Notes: generated from the sequence alone by a model not told the origin. DNA of 25,416 nucleotides from Abditibacteriaceae bacterium (GCA_043734795.1 JAYTEY010000338.1:1-25416), one strand, 5' to 3'; counted from the stretch's first letter, positions 2,798 to 21,267 are shown. Made by a program: numbers and translations.

Positions 2798-3343
2798 ATG
2801 AATCGCTCTCACACTTCAAAACCTAAAAACGCGCGCGCGCCGCAGCATCGCGCCGCGCGTTTTCGTGGCGCCAGTGCGCTGCTGGCGACGGCGATGTTGC
2901 TGCTCGCTTTTGCGCCGTTTCAAAGTGCCAACGCCGATTCGCTGAAAAGTTTCAACGCGCAATGGGCGCAGGTTTCGTCCAGCTTGGTTTCTTCGCTGGG
3001 CGCGACCGATGAGGCGACCGCGCGCGTTCAAAGCGAGCAGTTGTTCTTGTGGATGCAAACGCGCGTTGCATCGTTCGAGAATCCGCAAGGTTTGTCGGTC
3101 GGCCAGTTCGTCGCTTTGCTCGATGAATGGCGCCAAACCGAGCGCGGCAAAATCAGCGTTCCCCAAATTCACGCCAAGACGAAACAACCGCAATCGAGTA
3201 CTCGATTGCGCGCGAGTTCGTTTCTCGAGCTTGCTTTCGCGCCACAAATTGCCACTTTCAACCCGCGCTCTCATGCGCCGTTTTCTTCTTCTCATGCCGC
3301 CGCGAAACTTTCCGGCGTGCGCACCAATCGTCGTCACGAATAG
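2798..3343 (+). CDS. Exported protein with Sec signal peptide directly upstream of secA; candidate SecM-like monitor peptide (181 aa)
   Basis: Basic n-region, hydrophobic ASALLATAMLLLAFAPF, ANA-D cleavage site; C-terminus FSSSHAAAKLSGVRTNRRHE. This is the last 181 codons of track ORF 1406..3343. Confidence 0.7.
   Translation: MNRSHTSKPKNARAPQHRAARFRGASALLATAMLLLAFAPFQSANADSLKSFNAQWAQVSSSLVSSLGATDEATARVQSEQLFLWMQTRVASFENPQGLSVGQFVALLDEWRQTERGKISVPQIHAKTKQPQSSTRLRASSFLELAFAPQIATFNPRSHAPFSSSHAAAKLSGVRTNRRHE
3193..3206. repeat. Iterated palindrome (exact)
   Basis: In the secA-upstream ORF, read as SSTR; extends to a 22-bp palindrome at 3189-3210. Confidence 0.95.
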
Positions 3344-3466
3344 CTTTCAGTTGTCGGTGTTCAGTGTTCGGTGGCCAGTTCCATCGCGCTGCGCCGCGCT
3401 TCGTCGCGCCTGACAATCAATAACCCAATTTCAAAAACCGCGAGAAATCTCGCCTGGAGACACACG

Positions 3467-6400
3467 ATGTTGAACTTGAAACATTTGTTCGGCGGCAAGC
3501 CGAAAGACGAAGACGCAAAGTCGGGCGCCGTTCAACTGGCGCCCGGAGCGCAGACGCCCGGAATCGCCGGAGCCGTCGCCAAACTGTTCGACAAAAACGA
3601 ACAAGAAGTCGCCAAACTGCGCCCGACAGTCGAACGCGTCAACACCCTGGCCGCTGAACTCAAAGCGTTGTCCGACGAAGAACTCAAAGCGCGTTCGCAA
3701 AAGCTGCGCGAAACTTTCCAGGAAATCGTGACGCAAAAACTGTCGCGTTCGCGCAACGCGGAAGGCGAAGCGTTCGGCTGGCAGGAACTGGCGACGGAAA
3801 TGGACTGGAGCGACGAATATCATCGCGCGCGCAAAGCCGCGGAAAAAGAAACGCTGGAAGAATTGCTGCCCGAAGCGTTTGCGCTCACGCGCGAAGCCGG
3901 CGACCGCACGATCGGGCTGCGTCACTTCGATGTGCAGCTCATCGGCGGCGCGGTTTTGCACAGCGGCCGCATCGGCGAAATGCGCACCGGCGAAGGGAAA
4001 ACGCTTGTTGCCACGCTGCCGACGTACCTCAATGCGCTCAGCGGGCGCGGCGTTCACGTCGTCACAGTCAACGATTATCTGGCCGAGCGCGACGCCAACT
4101 GGATGCGCCCGATTTATGAATTCTTGGGACTCAGCGTCGCGTTTTTGACCAACGACCTGGAAAACGACGCGCGCAAACCCGCTTATGCGTGCGACGTTTT
4201 GTATGGCACCAACAGCGAGTTCGGCTTCGATTATCTGCGCGACAACATGGCGCGCACGTCCGACGACATGGTGCAGCGCGCGCTCAACTTCGCCATCGTC
4301 GATGAAGTCGATAACATCCTGATCGACGAAGCGCGCACGCCTTTGATTATCTCGGCGCAGGTCGCCAAAACCGACCGCGCTTTGCGGCGCCAGCAGATGG
4401 CGAAAACCTGCGACGGTCTGGCGCGCAACCTCATGCCCGCCGTCACCGACCGCGAAATCGAAAACCTGCAAGACAGTCTGACTGAGCGCGGGCGCATCGA
4501 CATCGACGGCTTGATGCGCGAAATTCTCAAAAACGGCGCCTTCGATCAGGCCGCGAGCTATCTTGTCGATTCCTACTTAATAGGCGAACGCAGCGCGCGC
4601 GTGGAAAACGCGTCGCACCTGCTCGATGTCGCAATCGAGTACTCGAATGCCGGTTTGATCGACGCCGCAGGCCGTGATCATCTGCAAAACATCGCGGTCG
4701 AAGCGGTTCATCCCGACCGTTTGCGCGACGCCTGGACTCAAGAAATCGCGCGCCTGAGCGAACCGTTCGCGCAAGCATTCGCGTTCAACATGGAAGAAGG
4801 CAACGCGCGCGCGCTGGCGATGTCGCTCGATTTGGGCGACGACGCGAGCATCGAATTCGCGCCGCGACTGGACGAAACCCAAAGCAAAATGCCGGTCGTC
4901 GCGCAAATCGTCGCCGAAGAAATGGCGCGCCGCAACCTGGTTTCCGAAGGCGCAGTTGCGGACGTTTCGGCTGCTCTGTTGGGCGCGGGGAATTCGCCCC
5001 AAGCGATTCATTCGGCGTTAATGGAAGCGGTTTTGGCATCGCCCGGCGGCGTTCAGGAAGCCGACGCTTTGCTGCATGAAGCGGTCGCGGAAAGCGGCGC
5101 AATCGGCGGCATCAAGAACGAGGACAGCGCGCGTCGCATCATCGGCGCGCTGGAAGAAGTTTCGCTGCGCGGACTTTTGCCTTTCGAGACCGGCGAGCGT
5201 TTGTGGGAATCGGTGAAATTAACGCAAGGCCGCGACGCTTTGCGCAGCGAGATTGCGCGCACAGTCGAAGCGCATCCGGGCGAAGCCGCGCAAAAAATCG
5301 CGCAACTGGCAAACGAGTACTCGAACGCGCGCCAGGCGTTCTTGCAAACCGAATCGGAGACTTTGAAGTCGCAGTTGGGCGCTTATGAAATCGTGGCGAA
5401 GCAGGCGCGAAACGGTGCAACGGCCAACGCGTTGCGCGCGACTCTGCAAAGCGAAATCGGCAAAAGCGGCGCGTTCGGCGAAGCGACCAAGCTGGTGAAA
5501 AACTTCGTGCGCGAGCAAAATCGCGCGCACGAATCTTTGGCCGGAAGTTTGGCCGAAGAAATGGCGCAGTGGGTCGAAGTTCCGCGCGACGCCAACAAAA
5601 TTCTGGCGCAACTGTTCGGCGAAGGCGGCAAAACCGGCGAAGTGCGCGAGCGCATTCTGTTGGCTGTGCGTGATTTGCCCGGCGAAAATACCGAGCTTCC
5701 CGCGCTGATCGGCGAAAGCGTGCGCCAACTTCAAGAATGGCGCAGCGAACACGCGCATCTTTTGGTGACGGAAATTAGCGAGCGTGTCGAGCTTCCCGCC
5801 GAATCGAGTACTGGAATTGTGGCCGCGATTGAAAACGGCGAGTTCGCGGGCAATTTGGAAGATTTCATCGGCGAGCAGCTGCTGGCTTCTCCGCAAATCG
5901 CGCTTCAAGCGCAGGCGATTGACGAATTCGGCGCGCGCCTGGCGGCTTTCGAAGACGAATCCGACACGCAAATCCTGAGTTCGATTCATGACGTTTTGCC
6001 TTTGTCGGACGACGCGCGCGACGCCTTGCAGGAAACGCTGGACGCGACCGAAACCGATCTGCACAAAGCGATTTTCGGGACTTTGGCCGCCGACGCCGTG
6101 AGCCGCCATCTGGAGCCATTGTTGACCGAAGAAAACGCGGTCGCTTTTGCCGAAGAAGTGACGCGGCGTTTGCCGCTGGCGAAAAACGTCCGCAAGCGCG
6201 TCAAGGCGAACGCGTTCGTCGGTCGTTCCGCCGAGCAGCTGATGCGCGCGATCGTGCGTTTGGTGCAGGAAACTTTCGCGGTCGTGCAAGTCGATGAAGG
6301 TGTCGGCGAAGACAGCCTGAAACGCGTCGTGCGCAACCTGGGCTGGCTGGTCGAAAAAGACGAGAAACGTCGCCAGGCGGCGCTGACCGACATGGGAACT

Positions 6401-9400
6401 TTGGTCGCCGAGCGCGAAGCCGGAACGCCCGCCTTTAGCGACCCGGAAAATTTCCTGGAAACGCTGGTCTCCAACGAAATTTTGACCGAAGACGAAGCCG
6501 CCGTTTTGCGTCGCGCGCAAGCCGAAAACCCAAATGACACGATTTCGACAACAGTCGATCGAGTGCTGCGTTTGCCTGCCGACCGCCGCCGCCGTTTGGC
6601 CGAAGCCAAGCTGCAAGAGATTCAGCCGGTTTTGGATCAGGCGGTCAAGGCGCACGCGCTGTTTCACCGCGAAGTGCATTACGTCATCGCCAGCAACCCG
6701 GAAACCGGCAAGCAGGAAATCGTCATCGTCGACGAATTTACAGGCCGCAAAATGCCGGGACGCCGCTTCAGCGAAGGCTTGCACGAAGCCTTGGAAGGCA
6801 AACACGATTTGGAAGTCCAATTGGAATCTCAAACGGTTGCGACGGTCACGATTCAGAATTATTTCCGGCTTTATAACAAGCTGGGCGGCATGACGGGAAC
6901 CGCGAAAACCGAAGAAGCCGAGTTCGCCAAAACCTATGGCATCGAGGTCGTTTCGATCCCGACCAACCGCCAGATCAAGCGCCGCGACTTTCCCGATGTC
7001 GTCTACAAAACCGCCGAAGCCAAGTTCCGCGCGATTACGTTCGAGATTTTGGAACATCATTGCGCCGGTCAGCCGGTTTTGGTCGGAACGCGCAGCGTCG
7101 AGGTTTCGGAACGCATGAGCGAGCGTTTGAAAGCGCAGCCTTTGCAGCTTTTGGCCTTGCAGCAATTGATCAAGTCGAAGTTGTGGGATGACAAAAGCGT
7201 GCCCGCCGACCAAAAAGCCGAGATCGTGCAAGGCTTGAATACGCCGATCGCGCAGCTCAACATGATGCAGGTCAAAGCCGTCGCGCGTCAGTTCAGCATC
7301 AATCCCGACGCCAATCACGAAGACAACATCAACGCGCTGCTGGGTTTGTTCACGGTCGCTAACCCCAGCCGCGAAAAGCTCGAAACCGCGCTCAAAGTCG
7401 GCTTGCCGCACAACGTTTTGAACGCCAAAAACCATCGCAACGAAGCGCGCATCGTCGCCGAAGCCGCGCGCCCCGCGAGCGTCACGATCGCGACCAACAT
7501 GGCCGGTCGCGGCGTCGATATCGTTTTGGGCGGAACGCTTGACGTTGAATCGCGCTGGCGCGTGATGACGCTGCAAACCTTGGCGCGCGCGTTGGAAAAC
7601 AAAAGCGTGCAGGTGCGTTCGCGCAACGAAGAAACCACGCAAAAGTTCGTCGAACGATTGGCGCCCGAGCGTTTGCAGGATTTGGCGTGGATGAGTTTGA
7701 TGACGCAAACCGTCGATCAGTTGGAGCGCGAAGGCAAGCTGCAAGGCCAGATCGCCAAAGAACTGCGCGACACCCTGGCGCAGGAACTGACGACGCCCGA
7801 CCTGAAAAACAAAGTCCGTTCGCGCGCGCGGCGCTTGAACTTGCTGGATCAATTGCCGCTGGACGCCGCGCCGATGGACGACAATCGAGTACTCGATGCG
7901 CTCAACAACGACTTCAAGCGCTTGATGAACTTGAGCTTTCCCAACGAACAGCTTTTGATGGCGCTATCGAATGGCGTTTCGAGCCGCGCGACGGGACGCG
8001 ATCCGGGCGAAAGCGCTTTGCTGATGGCGCTTTCGCGGCCTCTTTCGATTGCACAAAACTCGTGCGAACGTTTGCTCGAAGTGTTGGACGAAACGCCCGA
8101 TCTGGACGAAATGCTGCTCGAAGCCGCGTCGCAATCCGCCGATTTGGGATATGCGCAGTCGTTCCTCGATTTGGCTTCACAGCTTCCCCACGTCACGCCG
8201 GAATGGGTCGAAGGCGAACTGAAACTGTTCAACGTGAGCAATGCCGCCGACGCCAAACGAGTACTCGATTTGCGCCAGAACACGCGCAAAGAAACCAACG
8301 AAGCGCAGATTCTCGCCGAACTGGGCGAACAAAATCTGGGTTTGCAATGGCTGCGCGAACGCTTGCGCGAATGGAACGTGGCGAGCGAAGCGCGCGCATT
8401 TCAAGCGACGCCCGAACTTCAGGAAATGCTCGGCGACAGTGCCGTCGTGCACTTGAAACTGGACAAAGAGCGCGTCGCAGCTTTGCGCAAAGAATGGCAA
8501 AACGGCGGCGATCATCGGCGCGCTTTGGTCACAGTCGAGGCGCCGAACCTGATTTTGCTGGGCGATGTCGCCGAAGTCGCCGGACACGACGCGCCATTTC
8601 TGCATCCTGAATGGATGCACGCGACGATGGTGCAGCTCGATTTACTCACGGGCGACGACGTTTTTGAAGCGCAGATCATGGGTCAAGCCGAAGACGAAGC
8701 GGGCAACTTGCAGGAAATGCCGATCGACGTTCTGGTCTACCGCATTCGACTCAATCGAGTACTCGATGCGCTGGCTCCCACGCTGCGCGAAGCCGTGCAA
8801 ATCGTCGGAAGCGAACCGAAAGACGTGTTGCGCGAGTTGGAGCGCCAGGCGCCGTGGGCAGCGCAATTCATCGACGAAAATTGGGTTGCGGGCAAACTGC
8901 AAAGCCTCGATATGACGAGCGTGCCGGTTCAAAGCGGCGCGCCGGTTCGCATCGAAACCGGCGTGGCCGGACAAAGCGCCGACATCGTTTTGGAAGGCGA
9001 AGCGCGCGCGGAAGACATTGCGCACACGTCCGAGCAAGACGAAGTGAAAGCTTCGGGCGGTTTGCACATCATCGGAACCGAGCGCCACGAAAGCCGCCGC
9101 ATTGACAATCAGTTGAGAGGCCGCGCCGGTCGTCAGGGCGATCCGGGTTCTTCGCGTTTCTATGTTTCTCTGGAAGACGAATTGTGGCGTTTGTTCGGCG
9201 TGCGCGGACAAGGGCTTTTGAACAAATGGGACGAGGACGAAGCGGTCGAGCATCCGATGATTTCTAAGAGCGTCGAGCGCGCGCAAAAGAAAGTCGAGCT
9301 GAATCACTTTGAAGGCCGCAAAAACGTTTTGCAATATGACGACGTGATGAACGTGCAGCGCGAAGTGATTTACCGCGAGCGCCGTCGCGCGCTTTTGGGC

Positions 9401-10249
9401 GGCGACTTGCGCGATACAGTTCTCGATATGGCGCAGCAGGCGGCACTTTCCGAAGCCGAAAAACAGTGTCCGCGGGCGGTTCGTTCCGAGGAATGGGACA
9501 AGCACAAACTCTTCGTCGGATTGGGTCGTTTGTTCGGCGCGTCCTTGCTGCACAAGCATTTGCAGGAAGACGAACTCGCGGCAATCGCCAACCGCGACGA
9601 GATCGACGAGCGCTTGATGGAAGTTGCCGAGGCTTGCTACAACGCGCGCGAAACCGAAATGGGCGAGGAAAACTTGCGCAGTCTGGAAGCGTGGCAAGTC
9701 ACGCGTTCAATAGACGAGTATTGGATGGAACATCTGGCGGAAATGGACTATCTGCGCGACGCGATCTGGCAGGAAGGCTATGCGCAGAAAGAGCCGATCG
9801 GCGTTTATCGCCAGGAAGGTTTCGCCCTGTTCCAAAAGATGCAGGACGAGATTCGGCGCGAAGTCACAGAAGCGGTTTTTTCGGCGCAAAACGAAATGTC
9901 GCTGGATGACTTCGCTTATGGCGGCCCGGAACTGAGCGAGTTGCAAGAAGCGCGTTTGGTGCAAATGATGCCGATGGACGACGGCGGAATCGAAGACGGC
10001 GCCTTGCTGGACAAAGACGCCGACGGCGATGACGACGAAGAAATCCTGGTTTCCAGTTCGCCGATGACGATTCCCAATGCGCCCAATCGCGAAGTGGCGA
10101 CACAATCGAGTACTCGATTGCAAAGCGGCGGCTCGGTTTCGGGCAACTCGTTTCCTGGCGCGAACAATGGCGGAACAAACAGCGGCAATCAACCGCTGAG
10201 TCGGGCAGAACGGCGCGCGCGTGAACGCGACGGCAAAAAGCGCGGTTGA
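3467..10249 (+). CDS. secA: Preprotein translocase ATPase SecA, giant form (~2260 aa) with large insertions
   Basis: GGAGA RBS before ATG 3467. Motifs in SecA order: [50 protein letters not shown]...[101 protein letters not shown]. Confidence 0.97.
4634..4647. repeat. Iterated palindrome (1 mismatch, ATCGAGTACTCGAA)
   Basis: In the SecA PPXD insertion, read as IEYS. Confidence 0.85.
5312..5325. repeat. Iterated palindrome (2 mismatches, AACGAGTACTCGAA)
   Basis: In the SecA PPXD insertion, read as NEYS. Confidence 0.7.
5803..5816. repeat. Iterated palindrome (2 mismatches, ATCGAGTACTGGAA)
   Basis: In the SecA PPXD insertion, read as SSTG; the same variant occurs as reverse complement at 18205. 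Confidence 0.7.
7884..7897. repeat. Iterated palindrome (exact)
   Basis: In the SecA VAR insertion, read as RVLD. Confidence 0.95.
8256..8269. repeat. Iterated palindrome (1 mismatch, AACGAGTACTCGAT)
   Basis: In the SecA VAR insertion, read as RVLD. Confidence 0.85.
8754..8767. repeat. Iterated palindrome (exact)
   Basis: In the SecA VAR insertion, read as RVLD. Confidence 0.95.
10105..10118. repeat. Iterated palindrome (exact)
   Basis: In the SecA C-terminal tail, read as SSTR; extends to 18 bp at 10103-10120. Confidence 0.95.
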
Positions 10250-14280: not shown

Positions 14281-14760
14281 CTATTTTCCTGTATGCCCGA
14301 AACCGCCTCTTCCGCGTTCCGTTTCGTCCAGTTCTTTCACGATCTGCAAGGGCAAACGCTCGACGCGCGCCACGACCATTTGCGCGATTCTGTCACCGCG
14401 ATCGACCTGAAAAACCTCGCGCCCCAGATTCGTCAAAATCACTTTGACTTCGCCGCGGTAATCCGAATCGATCGTTGCGGGCGAATTGAGCAACGTGATT
14501 CCGTATTTCAGCGCCAAGCCGGAACGCGGGCGAAGTTGAACTTCGTAGCCATCAGGAATCGCCAGCGAAAAACCGGTCGCGACCAGTTTCGTTTCGCCGA
14601 TCGACAACGTGCAATTTTCCGCTGCGCGCACGTCCATTCCGGCTGCGCCCGCAGTTTGATAGGACGGCAATTCCAAGCCGTCGCTGCCGATTTCGCGCTT
14701 GAATTTTAAAACCGGCGCCGTCGAAGCGTCGTTCGAGTCCTCGATAGGTTCAGTTGGCAC
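14281..14760 (-). CDS. dut: dUTP diphosphatase (trimeric dUTPase)
   Basis: Motifs [37 protein letters not shown]; likely GTG start at 14760 after AAGGGG, overlapping the upstream stop. Confidence 0.95.
14732..14745. repeat. Iterated palindrome (2 mismatches, TTCGAGTCCTCGAT)
   Basis: In the dut N-terminal extension, read as IEDS. Confidence 0.55.
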
Positions 14761-15304
14761 GAAGCCCCTTTTTGTCGCGCTTGCGATTGGAGTTCGGAAT
14801 GTCCGCCAAAGCGCGCAAACCGCCATTCAAAGCCATTTGCAAAGCGTCGTTTTCTTCGTCGGAAAGCGTTTGTTCGGTTTGCGCCGCGACGACGCTTTTG
14901 GCGAAGCAGCGGCCGTCATTGCGGCCCATAAGGCCGGTCAAAATCGTGCCGTTTCGATAGTCATCGAGCAACGCCAGAGAAAACGATTGCGCACCGCTGA
15001 CATCGCCATACGCGTCGTAGCGCACCAATCCGATGTGCTGCACACAACTTTTCAAGGTTTCGTTGGCGCTTTCGATTTGCGTTTGCAATCCGTCGCAACG
15101 CTCGAGCGACTGCGCGCTTTCGCCCAGACAACGAGCCAGCATCGCTTCCAAATCGGCACCGTTTGGCCCCAAAAGCGCCGAACGCAGCGCACGATTGGTT
15201 TTCTTCATGCGAGCGCTCAAGTTCAGATAAAGCAGAAACTGCAAAGCGCACAAAACCATCAGCGCCAAGGCGATGAGCGAAAGATATGGTTGGAGAGCTT
15301 GCAT
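14750..15304 (-). CDS. DUF4446-like membrane-anchored protein (184 aa)
   Basis: N-terminal TM helix, coiled coil, then [26 protein letters not shown]...NG.ILT...GR...FAK.V...LSDEE..AL. This is the last 184 codons of track ORF 14750..16801. Confidence 0.8.
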
Positions 15305-15381: not shown

Positions 15382-16848
15382 CTAAAAGCGACGGCGCGCG
15401 CGCGCTTTGGGATGAACGCGTTGCGGCGCGCGCTCCTTTTCGGTGGCGGTTTCTTCGCCTGGCGAGAAATCTTCCGCAGCGAAATCTTCGTCGCGCGCTT
15501 GGGGATTTGAAGTTGAATCGCGGAAGTCGTCGGTTGGCGAGACGACGTTCTCGCTCGACGACAAAACCGCATCGACGGGAACCGAAACCGTTTCCGAAGA
15601 AACCGTCGCAATCGTCGCTGTGGAAAGCGATGAACTTGAAGCCGTCTGACCTGAAACCGATGGACTTTGTAGCGGATGCGTCGCCGCGTTTGTGGCATCG
15701 GGCGAAGGCAAAACTGTCGTGGCGAACGAGCCGCGACGCGGCGGCGCAACCGAAGTTTTGGCCGCTGAAGTCGTTGCCGCTGAAGCCGAGGCAGATGAAG
15801 GCGCAAGTGAGGCACGGTTTGGCGTCGTCAATCGAGTACTCGATGCCGCGTTGAGACCGCCCGAAGCGCGCAATCGCGCGGCCTTCTTTTCGTCCCAGCG
15901 ATGCCACGCGACCAGAACCATCGAAGCGTTGAAAATCGAGGAATACAAGCCAGACGCGATGCCGACCAACATCGCCAAAACGAAGTTGTAGATGCTTTCG
16001 CCGCCCAGCATTAGCAGCACGAAAAGCATGATGAGAACCGTCAAACCGGTATTGATGGAACGGCTCATGGTTTCCAGCAGCGAATCGTTGACGACTTTTT
16101 CGAACGGTTCTTTGCGCCGCAGCCGCAGGTTTTCGCGCAAGCGGTCGAAAATGACGACGCTGTCGTTGATCGAATAGCCGACAACAGTCAGAAGAGCGGC
16201 GATGAAAGCGCCATCGATTTCGACACTGGGTTTCAAATGCCCGATCAGCGCGAACAAACCGACCAAAACCAAAACGTCGTGGACCAGCGCGACAACGCCC
16301 GCGACCGCGTAGCGCGTTCCGTCGCCAGCGAAGTTGTAGCGAATGTAAATCCACAGCGCGATGAGGGCGACGCCCAGCAAAACGCCGGTAATCGCGTTGC
16401 GCTTGAGTTCGTCGCCGATGACCGGCCCGACGAACTGCTGTCCCAGCGGCGTCAAGGTCGCGGCCTGACCGTTTTGGGTCTGGCCGCCCGCGAAAAACGT
16501 CGTCAGGGCGCGGCGCACGCGCTTTTCCTGGCCTGTCAATTCGCTCTGGTCTTTGGCCAAGGTTTGAATCACGAGGGTATCGCCGCCCGCGATGCGCGGT
16601 TGCGTTTTCAGGCCCTGAGTTTCCAGCGCCGACCGCGCGCGGTCTTGCAGTGCGGCTTCTTGTCCGGCTTGCGGGCGCATCGAATAGGGAATGCGATATT
16701 GGAACTGACCGCCGCCTTTGAAATCGATGCCCAGGTTCAGGCCGAACAAAGCCCACGACGCCAATCCAACCAGAATCAGTGCCAGCGAAATGCCGAACCA
16801 CAACTTCATCTTGCCCACTAAATCGATGTGTTTTCGTCTGAAATCCAT
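15382..16848 (-). CDS. secF: Protein translocase subunit SecF with a ~170-aa low-complexity C-terminal tail (488 aa)
   Basis: LNLGIDFKGG, VGPVIGDEL, ALVHDV, GYSINDSVVIFDRLREN, SLLETMSRSINT, GLYSSIF. Confidence 0.96.
   Translation of the reverse strand: MDFRRKHIDLVGKMKLWFGISLALILVGLASWALFGLNLGIDFKGGGQFQYRIPYSMRPQAGQEAALQDRARSALETQGLKTQPRIAGGDTLVIQTLAKDQSELTGQEKRVRRALTTFFAGGQTQNGQAATLTPLGQQFVGPVIGDELKRNAITGVLLGVALIALWIYIRYNFAGDGTRYAVAGVVALVHDVLVLVGLFALIGHLKPSVEIDGAFIAALLTVVGYSINDSVVIFDRLRENLRLRRKEPFEKVVNDSLLETMSRSINTGLTVLIMLFVLLMLGGESIYNFVLAMLVGIASGLYSSIFNASMVLVAWHRWDEKKAARLRASGGLNAASSTRLTTPNRASLAPSSASASAATTSAAKTSVAPPRRGSFATTVLPSPDATNAATHPLQSPSVSGQTASSSSLSTATIATVSSETVSVPVDAVLSSSENVVSPTDDFRDSTSNPQARDEDFAAEDFSPGEETATEKERAPQRVHPKARARRRF
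15831..15844. repeat. Iterated palindrome (exact)
   Basis: Near the start of the SecF tail, read as SSTR. Confidence 0.95.
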
Positions 16849-16921: not shown

Positions 16922-19030
16922 TTAACGCCTTTGTGTGCTTTCGGTCGCCAATCGAGTACTCGATTCGGCTTCGACGGCACTGCGCGCGACCGGAGTTCCG
17001 AACAGGTTGCGGTTGCGTTCGCCTGTTCCGACAACGCTCCACATGAACAAGCGCGTCACGCTGATGGCCGAAAACAACGACAGCAAAACTCCCACGCCCA
17101 ACGTCAAGGCGAAACCTTTGACCGGCCCGGTTCCGAAGAAGAACAAGACTGTCGCAGCGATCAACGTCGTGACGTGCGAATCCAAAATCGCCGTCCAGGC
17201 GCGACTAAAAGCGGCGCGCAAAGCAGCCGTAAATGTCGGCTGAATCGCCATTTCTTCACGCAAGCGTTCAAAAACCAGGATGTTGGTGTCCAATGACATC
17301 GCAATCGCCAGGAGAAAACCGGCGATTCCCGGCAGTGTCAGCGTTCCGCCCAACAAGATGAAAACCGCGAGGTTGAGCAAACAGTAGATCACGAGCGCCA
17401 AGTCGGCCAAAAGTCCCGGCAAGCGATAAAAAACGATCATAAAGAGCGCGACAGCCACCAACCCGATGGCGCCCGCGCGCAAGCTTTTGCTCAGCGAATC
17501 CTGGCCCAAAGTCGCGGAAACCGTGCGGTTCTCTACGACATCGATCGGCGCTGGAAGCGCGCCGCTGTTCAAAAGCGAAGTCAGGGTTTGCGCTTCTTCG
17601 ATGGTTTTGAAGCCGCCCGAAATCTGGCCTTCGCCCGATGTAATGGCGCTGTTGACGCTGGGAGCCGTAATGCAGCGCTCGTCCAGAAAAACTGGAATGT
17701 AGCGGTTTTTGCCGGGGTCGGCTTCCGAGTTCGGGTTTTGCACACGGCGCGTCACATCCGCGAAACGCTGAACGCTGTCGCCCTGCAATTCAAAGGAAAC
17801 CGCGGGCTGGCCGTTTTGCTGAAAAACCGCTTTGGTGTTCGGCTTGACATCCTGGCCGGGAACGACCAATTCCGACAATTGGCGCGCGACATTGGTCGGC
17901 ACAGCCGTGGTTGGTTTGCCGCCTTCCAAACGATAAAAGACGACGTTTTCGGTTCCCGTTGTCGGGTCGCGCTGTGGAATAGGAAGCAAGTTGGCGGGCA
18001 GCAAACGGATTTCCATTTGCGCCGTCGTGCCGATCACTTCAACCGCTTTTTGCGGATCGTTGACGCCCGGCAATTGAACGATGATGCGGTCGGTTCCCTG
18101 CTTTTGAATCAAAGGCTCGGAAACGCCCAACTTGTCGACTCGCGAGCGCACGATTTCCACCGTTCTGTCCAAACGCTCGCTGCTTTGACTCGCGCCCATG
18201 CCATTTCCAGTACTCGATCCCGCATTTGGGTCATAAAATTTGGCTTCGCCGTTGGGCGAAAACTTGGCGCCGCTCACGGTTTGCAGCGCTGCCGCGATCG
18301 CGGTTTTCTGCGCGTTGAACTCGTTCAAATCTTTGGCTTGCGTGCGCACTTCCAAAGTGTCGCTGCTGCCGCTCGAAAAGTTGACATCGGCGCGATCCAA
18401 GCCCGCGCCGCCGTTCGCCAAAGCCGCCCGAACCTGCGCTAAAAAGGCGTCGCGCGCATCGGCGTCGGCCAGCTTACGGTCAAAGCGAAACGGGAAAAGC
18501 GCGCGGCGCACTTGCAGCACGAGGTTGACGCCGCCGCGCAAATCGAGTCCCAGCTTGACCGCCGTGTTGCGCTCATATGGAAAAATCGCGTAGTTGGCGG
18601 TCTGAAAAATTGGCGCCGGTTGAAAGGCATTGAAATCGACTTTTTGCGCCGTCGTCACGCCCGGCAAGGTTTTGCTGACGACAGCCGCAATGCGCGCCGC
18701 GCGATTTTGCCCTTCCTGGCGTGTCGTGGCCTTGTCGGAAACCGTCGCGGTTTTGGAATTGGCGTCGTAGGTCAAGCTCGAAAGCGGGACGTGATCGCGC
18801 CCGGACGGAAACTCCTTGATGAACGCGTCGTCGACCAGGTTGGCGGCGGTTTTTGCGGTTTGTCCTTTGGCGGGTTTGGGCGCCAATTGGTCGAATGGCT
18901 TGGCCGAAGCGAAGGTGAGCGTGTAGTTTTGCGATTGCGGCGGCGCGCCAATCGGGTAAAAAATGACGCCCAGACACGCGAGAACGAGGAGCGCAAGCCC
19001 CAGATATTGAACCGGACGGCGACGTAACAT
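16922..19030 (-). CDS. secD: Protein translocase subunit SecD (702 aa)
   Basis: KLGLDLRGG, RVDKLGVSEP.IQ.QG..RI.VQLPGV, AP.V...I..G.GQISG, LNSGALP, TVSATLG, TLTLPGIAG, DTNILVFER.REE, AILDSHVTT, GTGPVKGFA.TL; GAGG RBS. Confidence 0.96.
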   Translation of the reverse strand: MLRRRPVQYLGLALLVLACLGVIFYPIGAPPQSQNYTLTFASAKPFDQLAPKPAKGQTAKTAANLVDDAFIKEFPSGRDHVPLSSLTYDANSKTATVSDKATTRQEGQNRAARIAAVVSKTLPGVTTAQKVDFNAFQPAPIFQTANYAIFPYERNTAVKLGLDLRGGVNLVLQVRRALFPFRFDRKLADADARDAFLAQVRAALANGGAGLDRADVNFSSGSSDTLEVRTQAKDLNEFNAQKTAIAAALQTVSGAKFSPNGEAKFYDPNAGSSTGNGMGASQSSERLDRTVEIVRSRVDKLGVSEPLIQKQGTDRIIVQLPGVNDPQKAVEVIGTTAQMEIRLLPANLLPIPQRDPTTGTENVVFYRLEGGKPTTAVPTNVARQLSELVVPGQDVKPNTKAVFQQNGQPAVSFELQGDSVQRFADVTRRVQNPNSEADPGKNRYIPVFLDERCITAPSVNSAITSGEGQISGGFKTIEEAQTLTSLLNSGALPAPIDVVENRTVSATLGQDSLSKSLRAGAIGLVAVALFMIVFYRLPGLLADLALVIYCLLNLAVFILLGGTLTLPGIAGFLLAIAMSLDTNILVFERLREEMAIQPTFTAALRAAFSRAWTAILDSHVTTLIAATVLFFFGTGPVKGFALTLGVGVLLSLFSAISVTRLFMWSVVGTGERNRNLFGTPVARSAVEAESSTRLATESTQRR
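16951..16964. repeat. Iterated palindrome (exact)
   Basis: In the last codons of secD, read as SSTR. Confidence 0.95.
18205..18218. repeat. Iterated palindrome (2 mismatches, TTCCAGTACTCGAT)
   Basis: In a SecD Gly/Ser linker (AGSSTGNG). Confidence 0.7.
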
Positions 19031-20397: not shown

Positions 20398-21267
20398 ATA
20401 GGACTTCGTCCGAGACAACCATTCCGCGATCCGCGCCGCGATCAGACGCTGATCAACGACCGCATTCGCTTTCCGCAAATTCGCGTCATCGATGAAAAAA
20501 ACGGGCAGTTGGGCGTGATGCAAACGCGCGACGCCCTTGAACTCGCGCGCGACCGCGACCTCGATCTCATCGTCGTCGCGCCGCAAGCGCAGCCGCCGGT
20601 CTGTCGCATCATGGACTACGGCAAGTTCAAATACGAAAAAAGCAAGCGCGATAAAGACGCGCACAAGAAAAGCGCATCCAGCGAAATGAAGATGGTGCGT
20701 CTGCATCCGCAAACAAGCGAGCACGACCGCCAGGTTTTGGTGCGTCACAGCGAGCGATTTTTGCGCAGCGGTCACAAAGTGCGCGTGATTTGTCGCTTCA
20801 AAGGCCGCGAAAACGCGCATCCCGAAATCGGTCGTGCGCAGTTGCAAGCCGTTTCCGACGCGCTAACCGAGTTCTGCACGGTCGAAGGCCTGATCGCTAA
20901 ACAGGGCCGCGACATGACGATGAACCTGACGCCGCGTCCGGGCGTGAAGCCAATCGTCAAGGAAATCAAGGTCGGCAAGAAAGGCCGCGCGTCCGACGAA
21001 GCCGCTGCTGCTGAAGCTGCTGAAGACGCCGAGTTCGCGCGCTTGCAGCAGCAAGTCATCGACGAAGTTGGCGGCGACGAAGCTGCCGCTGCCGAGGCTG
21101 CCTCAGGCGAAGTCGCAGAAACCAGCGATAACGAACTGATCAACGCCGCCGTCGCCGAAGCGATTGCTGCCGGAGAAAGTTCAAGAATCGAAGGCGCCGT
21201 TTCGGATGAAGTTGTGGCCGAATCGTCGGAAAGCAGCACGACGACGCCAGTCGCAGAATCGAGTTGA
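20398..21267 (+). CDS. infC: Translation initiation factor IF-3 with non-canonical ATA start and a ~110-aa acidic tail (289 aa)
   Basis: INDRIRFPQIRVID...GQLGVM...DLDLIVVAP...PPVCRIMDYGKFKYE...GHKVRV...FKGRE. GAGGTGA Shine-Dalgarno 7 nt before ATA 20398; in-frame TGA at 20383. Confidence 0.93.
   Translation: MGLRPRQPFRDPRRDQTLINDRIRFPQIRVIDEKNGQLGVMQTRDALELARDRDLDLIVVAPQAQPPVCRIMDYGKFKYEKSKRDKDAHKKSASSEMKMVRLHPQTSEHDRQVLVRHSERFLRSGHKVRVICRFKGRENAHPEIGRAQLQAVSDALTEFCTVEGLIAKQGRDMTMNLTPRPGVKPIVKEIKVGKKGRASDEAAAAEAAEDAEFARLQQQVIDEVGGDEAAAAEAASGEVAETSDNELINAAVAEAIAAGESSRIEGAVSDEVVAESSESSTTTPVAESS

Follow-up and report, generated by a model that had tools for sequence, protein, structure and literature searches.

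A single-copy housekeeping SecA of 2260 residues in Abditibacteriaceae, with surface loops very probably expanded in place into folded accessory domains

The stretch of DNA analysed here, called the window below, is 25,416 nucleotides (nt) long and comes from a metagenome-assembled genome (MAG) of an Abditibacteriaceae bacterium (GCA_043734795.1, JAYTEY010000338.1:1-25416). On its plus strand lies a secA gene (3467-10249) of 2260 codons plus a stop, covered by a single uninterrupted, stop-free frame (3371-10249) and encoding a SecA protein of 250.6 kDa with an isoelectric point of 4.95. The gene start was set at the ATG at 3467 because homologues begin at that Met and a GGAG is found 7 nt upstream; the same start is conserved in the orthologue of the closest genome (G003), and the GC content along the gene is even, at 0.57-0.60. 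Residue numbers are counted from the Met at 3467. A first interpretation of the window, made without database searches (the sequence-only reading), had proposed a giant, essential-type SecA in one unbroken frame, with all of the SecA motifs intact and in order and with over half of its mass additional, and these proposals are borne out by the unbroken frame, the family assignment, the single copy and the map of insertions described below. This map was obtained by aligning the protein to the SecA of Escherichia coli (locus L028) and to eight SecAs of sister classes of the same phylum, and the three principal insertions are named insA, insB and insC. In the following list NBD1 and NBD2 are the two nucleotide-binding domains, PPXD is the preprotein cross-linking domain and VAR is the variable subdomain of NBD2; amino acids are abbreviated aa, and the evidence used is given in brackets.

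3456-3459, plus strand: ribosome-binding site GGAG, 7 nt ahead of the ATG at 3467 (sequence).
3467-10249, plus strand: secA, the predicted sole housekeeping SecA (open reading frame, Pfam, NCBIfam, genome searches).
3467-4381, plus strand: N-terminal extension (residues 1-32), 40-aa addition (87-126) and first part of NBD1 (Pfam, alignment gaps, motifs).
4382-4567, plus strand: first PPXD segment (306-367), including a 38-aa lineage-specific addition (324-361) (alignment, AlphaFold2 model).
4568-6358, plus strand: insA (368-964), predicted all-alpha insertion in the PPXD bulb (insert map, AlphaFold2, self-comparison, hidden Markov models (HMMs) of single units, profile search).
6359-6796, plus strand: second PPXD segment (965-1110) (Pfam SecA_PP_bind).
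6455-6616, plus strand: 54-aa addition in the second PPXD half (997-1050), predicted small helical module (alignment, VIA-align).
6797-7132, plus strand: end of NBD1 (TGTA1143) and start of NBD2 (1111-1222) (Pfam, alignment, motifs).
7133-7393, plus strand: insB (1223-1309), 87-aa helical insert in NBD2 (alignment to residues 464-545 of 2ipc, sister-class alignment).
7394-7555, plus strand: NBD2 core with motif V, MAGRG1345 (alignment; no nonsynonymous change over 54 codons versus G003).
7556-9025, plus strand: insC (1364-1853), predicted alpha/beta insertion at the VAR position (insert map, AlphaFold2, internal repeats).
7550-7981, plus strand: first ~145 aa of insC (1362-1505), apparent diverged duplicate of residues 1185-1314 (hhalign, profile match, model).
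9026-9907, plus strand: motif VI, GRQGDPG1888, helical scaffold and wing (1854-2147) (Pfam SecA_SW).
9908-10246, plus strand: C-terminal tail (2148-2260), an acidic/Gly-rich linker with a basic end and without SEC-C (Pfam, motif check).

The four SecA domains are all found, and in the canonical Pfam order (SecA_DEAD, SecA_PP_bind, P-loop_SecA and SecA_SW). In particular, NBD1 is matched by PF07517 with 381 bits (SecA_DEAD, residues 39-312) and contains the Walker A and Walker B motifs GEGKT175 and DEVD279; the PPXD is matched by PF01043 with 70 bits against a cut-off of 23.5 (residues 965-1110, profile positions 25-110); NBD2 is matched by PF21090 with 225 bits and contains the helicase motifs V (MAGRG1345) and VI (GRQGDPG1888); and the helical scaffold/wing region is matched by PF07516 (SecA_SW) with 186.5 bits, over residues 1926-2141 and the whole profile (1-200 of 200). 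Together with TGTA1143, the five motor motifs are all intact. The protein passes the NCBIfam cut-offs for SecA equivalogs (NF009538, 931.4 bits against 814; TIGR00963, 868.8 against 800), and the four SecA2 models of the same collection all score under their own cut-offs. The protein is a genuine, conserved, single-copy housekeeping SecA with the canonical four-domain core intact, and is predicted to be a working ATP-driven preprotein translocase motor acting through SecYEG.

The additional mass is concentrated at few sites. The PPXD bears additions at residues 324-361, 368-964 (insA, 597 aa) and 997-1050, and insC, of about 490 aa (about 1364-1853), occupies the VAR site, which is flanked by helicase motifs V and VI; the sequence-only reading had estimated ~630 aa in the PPXD and ~500 aa at VAR, and had also noticed the smaller additions at the N-terminus, mapped here by the same alignment to residues 1-32 and 87-126, and in the second PPXD half. 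It had further described an ~88-aa insert in NBD2 (7136-7399) as lineage-specific. An insert is present there (insB, residues 1223-1309, 87 aa, nt 7133-7393), but sister classes and Thermus have the same one: all eight sister-class SecAs align through it without a gap, and it aligns with residues ~464-545 of the Thermus thermophilus SecA (2ipc). Thus insB is an older insert, common to the sister classes and Thermus.

The same architecture is found throughout the class Abditibacteriia, a lineage of soil and freshwater. All of the Abditibacteriia genomes searched, some of them assembled into one, two or three contigs, have a SecA orthologue of 2113-2350 aa; in the searched genomes of the family, the order and the class, the SecA frames span about 2140-2340 aa, compared with 1037-1153 aa in eight sister-class genomes. 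On a single-contig chromosome of 3.83 Mb (OZ255721.1) the orthologue is 87% identical and about 2260 aa long, and a protein-database search returned dozens of independent versions of 2113-2350 aa from NCBI, ENA, JGI and Logan assemblies. The five near-closed Abditibacteriaceae genomes have one secA each, so that the second, normal-length secA whose presence the sequence-only reading had proposed to check was not found in them; the two SecA_DEAD matches seen per genome both come from NBD1, which the PPXD splits into two parts. The MAG from which the window derives contains, besides this secA, a 2-kb contig (C549 of G000, locus L027, 1-2015) encoding 671 aa of another giant SecA. This fragment is 53% identical to the window SecA and 94% identical to P0035, which belongs to a different Abditibacteriaceae lineage, and because of the latter value we regard it as co-binned contamination rather than as a paralogue. 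As far as the data go, both a chimeric assembly, which the sequence-only reading had raised and which the closed chromosomes with the same architecture exclude, and a hidden normal SecA are excluded. As a separate observation, in one long-contig MAG the giant secA (G017:C12:518921-525555, CAVYKL010000012.1) is broken by TGA, TAA and TAG stops and by frame shifts, and automatic gene calls divide it into fragments of 200-570 aa; these breaks are likely long-read consensus errors rather than the marks of a pseudogene.

The two large inserts were modelled with AlphaFold2 from alignments of 58 family members, a shallow input, and both are predicted to fold confidently. The model of the PPXD with insA (residues 296-1118) has a mean predicted local distance difference test score (pLDDT) of 86.6 and a predicted template modelling score of 0.78, and is all-alpha, with about 40 helices; the mass of insA is about 70 kDa. 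The two stretches that flank insA together restore the PPXD fold, which aligns with 5k94_B, an isolated PPXD, at Z 6.8 over 132 aa, and a shape search of the ESM Atlas with this model retrieves SecA PPXD clusters only, with a template modelling score of 0.60 for the PPXD cluster. In a comparison of insA with itself (hhalign), off-diagonal matches reach an E-value of 1.6e-10 at offsets of about 64-94 aa. In the model the repeated unit has a long first helix (~30 aa) and then two short helices, with units of about 62-78 aa, and single-unit HMMs locate further copies, with starts near residues 455-475, 590-611, 668, 744, 812 and 888. By model and profile, then, insA is an array of degenerate tandem three-helix units, at least 6-7 in number. 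Profile comparison of insA with the rest of SecA gave self-repeats only, and an exhaustive HMMER search with the insA profile (A3) over 1.84 billion representative proteins returned 18 matches, all of them Abditibacterial SecAs or their fragments. The insA model had no match in the PDB at E <= 1e-3 (Foldseek), and a feature search of the ESM Atlas found nothing for insA.

The one local resemblance to solved structures is that of the smaller addition in the second PPXD half. In the model, residues 993-1051, which enclose the 54-aa addition, superpose on the helical modules MshE-N, PilF GSPII-B and PilB-N (5htl, 8pdk, 7lkm and 6f8l; VIA-align), with Z of 6.2-7.2 and a root-mean-square deviation (rmsd) of 2.5-2.8 over 56-58 aa. 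The corresponding Pfam family, PF05157, was not reported in the Pfam scan. The signature of MshE-N is a motif of 24 residues, RLGxx(L/V/I)(L/V/I)xxG(L/V/I)(L/V/I)xxxxLxxxLxxQ, within a four-helix fold that binds cyclic di-GMP; by our reading against this motif, the residues R1, G3 and G10 are not kept in 997-1050.

The model of NBD2 with insB and insC (residues 1160-1935) has a mean pLDDT of 83.6, with insert blocks mostly at 85-95, and a mixed alpha/beta composition; insC, with a mass of about 55 kDa, again leaves the host fold complete, the RecA fold of NBD2 being rebuilt from both its flanks (2fsf_A, Z 16.8, rmsd 3.6 over 188 aa). Since PPXD and NBD2 are both rebuilt from the insert flanks in the models, the inserts would be loop excursions that leave the core intact. 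The origin of the first part of insC can be traced: hhalign pairs residues 1362-1505, with a probability of 96% and an E-value of 3.4e-9, with residues 1185-1314, a segment made up of the first helix-strand-helix of NBD2 plus insB. Independently, the insC profile matches sister-class SecAs, none of which had gone into the profile, in their NBD2/insB region (E 8e-13). The order helix-strand-helix at the start of insC is the same as in its NBD2/insB counterpart in the model. Internal repeats are also detected in insC (E 2e-6), with a recurring 'PEW...L' motif in the remainder. One order-level lineage is without residues 1534-1576 and 1620-1706 of insC, as would fit modular gain or loss. No insC homologues elsewhere were found by word, Pfam and fold searches, with a coverage more limited than for insA, and a Foldseek search of the PDB with the insC model matched SecA only, through NBD2. 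When shorter proteins with insA or insC were sought by words, truncated Abditibacterial SecAs were all that the search retrieved, and the isolated inserts, like all 58 insC homologues, gave scattered chance matches only against Pfam at E up to 10. Two candidate relationships were discarded: a weak feature lead of the ESM Atlas towards RapA_C / Helicase_C for the tail of insC, which Pfam did not support, and homology between insA and insC, for which the profile-profile probability was 2% and only a short helix motif, 'PE(W/N)..L....L(T)', is common to both.

Codon comparisons indicate how these regions are maintained. The ratio of nonsynonymous to synonymous substitution rates (dN/dS) against G003 is 0.19 for insA, 0.15 for insC, 0.00-0.12 for the core blocks and 0.21 for the C-terminal tail; against G005 the values are 0.33, 0.29, 0.06-0.10 and 0.47, respectively. 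The synonymous rate is alike in inserts and core. The block with motif V of NBD2 (7394-7555) is 100% identical to G003, with dN = 0 over 54 codons, and the tail is the fastest-evolving part of secA. Across the class, the inserts are 25-55% identical, with values falling to 23-37%, compared with about 50-80% in the core blocks, with insert lengths kept and invariant residues scattered through both inserts. Because dN/dS is low, lengths are kept and residues are invariant, the inserts are most simply read as translated and constrained, less tightly than the motor; both are under purifying selection.

The C-terminus of the window SecA has neither a match to SEC-C (PF02810, CxCx8C(H/C)) nor any Cys in its tail, as the sequence-only reading had observed in describing an acidic/Gly-rich end with no CxC...C motif. 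Other Abditibacteriia, namely basal members and several genera, keep the SEC-C motif GRNDPCPCGSGKKYKKCC, so the zinc finger (MBD) was lost in the source genus, where a short basic tail replaces it. The MBD is reported to have ribosomes among its binding partners in addition to SecB, and SecAs that end in other basic tails may still bind ribosomes (PMC6620043). A SecB gene was not found in five genomes of the family Abditibacteriaceae.

The whole of these results is, in our judgement, very probably explained by a sole housekeeping SecA whose surface loops expanded in place into folded accessory domains. On the stem lineage of Abditibacteriia, repeated segmental duplication would have enlarged two surface loops, both of them variable throughout bacteria: the loop of the PPXD bulb would have given rise to insA, an acidic, all-helical array of three-helix repeats of about 70 kDa, and the VAR loop to insC, an alpha/beta domain of about 55 kDa whose first third would be a copy of the NBD2 start plus insB. 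Each insert would be an integral accessory domain, retained in the mature protein. Few molecular motors have been studied as thoroughly as SecA, and its cycle needs a large rigid-body swing of the PPXD, a domain that touches SecY and whose movement shuts the clamp on the client, together with a nucleotide-controlled opening of the cleft between NBD1 and NBD2; in E. coli, the VAR lid tunes ATPase activity as well as the release of ADP. Being carried by the swinging PPXD, insA probably serves as a larger platform on which unfolded clients or partner proteins are docked or held, and insC, at the VAR position, probably as a larger lid over the nucleotide cleft, with a regulatory role. These specific assignments, which derive from position, are tentative, and we hold them somewhat less likely than not. 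The context in which a role of insA has to be seen is a lineage without SecB and a genus without the zinc finger. A stronger version, in which SecA would have become a self-contained targeting and holding machine, with insA as a helical-repeat holdase or docking arm replacing SecB and the zinc finger in the capture of unfolded clients or partner machinery, and insC as an autoinhibitory pseudo-NBD2 lid that gates nucleotide exchange and is freed by client or SecY binding, is unlikely; were it true, the independent family of 2500-2600 aa described below would show the phylum answering one need in this way repeatedly.

Some observations weigh against the proposed roles of the added domains. The inserts are strongly acidic (net charge -47 for residues 320-1052 and -28 for insC) and have no hydrophobic segment. 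These properties speak against an electrostatic attachment to rRNA or acidic lipids, and so against the ribosome or membrane tethering that the sequence-only reading had considered possible alongside a built-in chaperone; the acidic charge points to no client-binding role either. Structural comparison by VIA-align gives little help: against 48,161 chains the best Z for insA is 7.8, below a meaningful level for helical proteins, and the insC model retrieves only SecA and the RecA cores of superfamily 2 helicases, which gives no function; both models were searched whole (776-823 residues), so that single-domain matches may be hidden. Neither predicted insert, therefore, has a meaningful match among solved structures, and this is not proof of new folds. 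Furthermore, a 12-nt palindrome, TCGAGTACTCGA, which is hyper-abundant in the genome, occurs 29 times in the 25-kb window against 0.01 copies expected. Seven copies fall in secA (4635, 5313, 5804, 7885, 8257, 8755 and 10106), where they are read in two phases (..EYS.. and ..RVLD..), and 22 more are spread across the window. All seven of the secA copies are in insA, insC or the C-terminal tail, and none is in the conserved core. Relaxed constraint, and a palindrome tolerated only in the inserts and tail, fit a low functional density.

A rival explanation is that the inserts are entrenched structural ballast, i.e., that in-frame duplication ran away in tolerant loops and left folded, functionless mass, retained only because an essential protein would by now be destabilised or misfolded by losing it (constructive neutral evolution). 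Besides the hyper-abundant palindrome confined to inserts and tail, it is favoured by inserts that evolve 2-4 times faster than the core and that sit at loops variable in all bacteria (PMC6620043), by the order that lost about 130 aa of insC and retained the gene, and by other lineages having enlarged SecA at quite different sites. However, the dN/dS of 0.15-0.33 is well below 1, the length and order of the inserts are kept across the whole class, invariant residues are scattered in both, confident models were obtained from a shallow alignment, and every SecA molecule costs about 150 kDa of extra protein. On this evidence we consider functionless mass rather unlikely, with a clear but minor share of the probability.

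The remaining explanations deny that the inserts belong to a working, full-length housekeeping SecA, and all of them fare worse. Removal of the inserts after translation, by protein splicing or proteolysis, to leave a SecA of normal size was raised by the sequence-only reading and is unsupported: no Hint, intein, LAGLIDADG or endonuclease family is detected in the inserts at E up to 10, nor across the 58 insC homologues, the helical repeats of insA and the NBD2 copy in insC are neither of them an intein fold, the PPXD alone has three separate additions, and proteolysis would cut the chains of PPXD and NBD2. We judge it very improbable. That the giant might be an accessory, SecA2-like or giant-protein-associated paralogue, with a normal SecA doing the housekeeping, has precedents in the accessory SecA2s and in the giant-protein modules that Omnitrophota have beside a normal SecA (bioRxiv 10.1101/2023.11.21.568195). 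Against it stand the single secA of the five near-closed genomes and of every relative searched, a SecA equivalog assignment with all of the SecA2 cut-offs failed, and a scaffold/wing domain that the giant-protein modules lack, and the idea is hardly credible. An artefact of assembly or gene calling, either a chimeric contig or genes fused by a frameshift, might be suspected of a MAG as fragmented as the source (565 contigs, 77% complete), yet the same architecture recurs at 87% identity on the single-contig chromosome and in dozens of independent assemblies, with purifying selection at the codon level along the whole frame; its probability is negligible.

If, as the expansion of surface loops into accessory domains supposes, the added domains are functional, they are natural experiments on the load and regulation that this motor tolerates and a new class of built-in accessory domains. 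An appendage of 70 kDa on the PPXD must be accommodated sterically. In addition, this SecA shows cleanly how an enzyme both essential and ancient can more than double in size by duplicating its own segments in place, and a cultured representative of the lineage, Abditibacterium utsteinense, exists.

Other genes of the window bear on how general such enlargement is. SecF (15382-16848, minus strand) has 488 aa, of which about 170 lie beyond the end of the Pfam domain SecD_SecF_C at residue 317, and SecD (16922-19030, minus strand) has 702 aa; SecY is normal everywhere searched, at 437-504 aa. The IF3 frame (20509-21267, plus strand) continues for about 110 aa after IF3_C. IF3 frames measure 233-309 aa in all but one (180 aa) of the genomes of the family Abditibacteriaceae and 171-198 aa in the remaining orders of Abditibacteriia. 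The true start of the IF3 gene is placed upstream, probably at a non-canonical codon, because the first listed codon already corresponds to position 20 of the IF3_N profile. The sequence-only reading had taken the extensions of SecF and IF3 to suggest a lineage-wide accretion on core machinery; the two extensions are real, but such an accretion is supported only in part and is not general, since SecY has its normal length and IF3 is extended in the family only, compared with a class-wide SecA enlargement. The extensions of SecF, IF3 and SecA appear to have arisen at different depths, with the channel partner of SecA unaffected. Also in the window are a gene of the DUF4446 family at about 14750-15274 (minus strand), following SecF, and, just upstream of secA, an open reading frame of 181 codons (2798-3343, plus strand) that matches no Pfam family.

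With the E. coli SecA (901 aa, 2fsf) and that of Bacillus subtilis (1m6n), the window SecA has in common the domain order NBD1, PPXD, NBD1, NBD2 and helical scaffold and wing domains (HSD/HWD), as well as the motor motifs, and canonical SecAs are 50-55% identical to it in the aligned NBD2 core. It differs from them in being 2.5 times longer, with about 690 extra aa in the PPXD, about 490 at VAR, N-terminal additions and no zinc tail. The best PDB sequence match, at 684 bits, is the T. thermophilus SecA (997 aa, 2ipc), which has insB and is without insA or insC. At the position of insC the E. coli protein has the VAR (residues ~519-547), of about 30 aa compared with about 490, and it is insC that starts with an NBD2 duplicate. 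The E. coli VAR is said to regulate SecA, and species-specific loops may do likewise, according to PMC6620043, which cites Das et al. 2012.

Long SecAs also occur in other bacteria. In the protein database there are 6575 SecA clusters of 1243 aa or more; among the matches listed, on which this comparison of lengths rests, the sampled long SecAs reach 1762 aa (Anaerolineae 1340-1380, Planctomycetes and Omnitrophica 1250-1480), and other SecAs of >2000 aa may exist elsewhere. The extra mass of those sampled is mostly at the C-terminus, at the N-terminus or in the wing; one has 231 aa at VAR and none has a large PPXD insert. Giant proteins of Omnitrophota and others bear SecA DEAD and PPXD modules that are divergent paralogues without scaffold/wing and with many transmembrane helices (bioRxiv 10.1101/2023.11.21.568195). 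Those of Omnitrophota coexist with a normal SecA, in contrast with the window SecA, which is the only SecA and is complete and soluble.

Within the phylum Armatimonadota, a scan of 121 genomes gave SecAs of 975-1222 aa in most cases. Another lineage of this phylum has SecAs of about 1560-1640 aa (P0004, P0006 and P0008, 1562-1640 aa; L032:1146-5885 of G046, 1580 aa), with an N-terminal extension of ~300 aa, an insert in the wing domain and SEC-C kept; the high scores of P0004, P0006 and P0008 had suggested tandem SecA-SecA fusions, and Pfam shows that P0004 and P0008 are single SecAs. A second giant family of the phylum (f18, with one genome labelled 'Fimbriimonadaceae bacterium' at NCBI) comprises four-domain SecAs of >2000 aa, one per genome by SecA_SW search. 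Its frames measure 2494-2608 aa in four uncut genomes (loci L029:1505-9088, plus strand; L030:658-8481, minus strand; L031:822-8477, minus strand), and two more, probably truncated, have 2084 and 1868 aa. In the two proteins of this family that were scanned, PPXD and NBD2 are normal, SEC-C is kept and about 1350 aa, rich in Ala, Leu, Glu and Arg, lie inside the scaffold/wing domain. A relationship of this insert with insA or insC was rejected (hmmsearch E > 1 against both profiles). Because the insert is unrelated and at a different site, SecA gigantism arose at least twice in the phylum.

Databases label the Abditibacterial giants simply as SecA, and our literature searches, which also bear on the sequence-only reading's reservation that such lengths might already be documented, found no paper on giant SecAs of the Abditibacterial or Fimbriimonadaceae type. 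Compared with the systems known so far, what is new is the absence of insert homologues (by exhaustive search for insA and a limited one for insC), the scale of the enlargement, the helical-repeat domain on the PPXD, the module at VAR derived from NBD2 and the existence, in parallel, of a second giant family in the same phylum.

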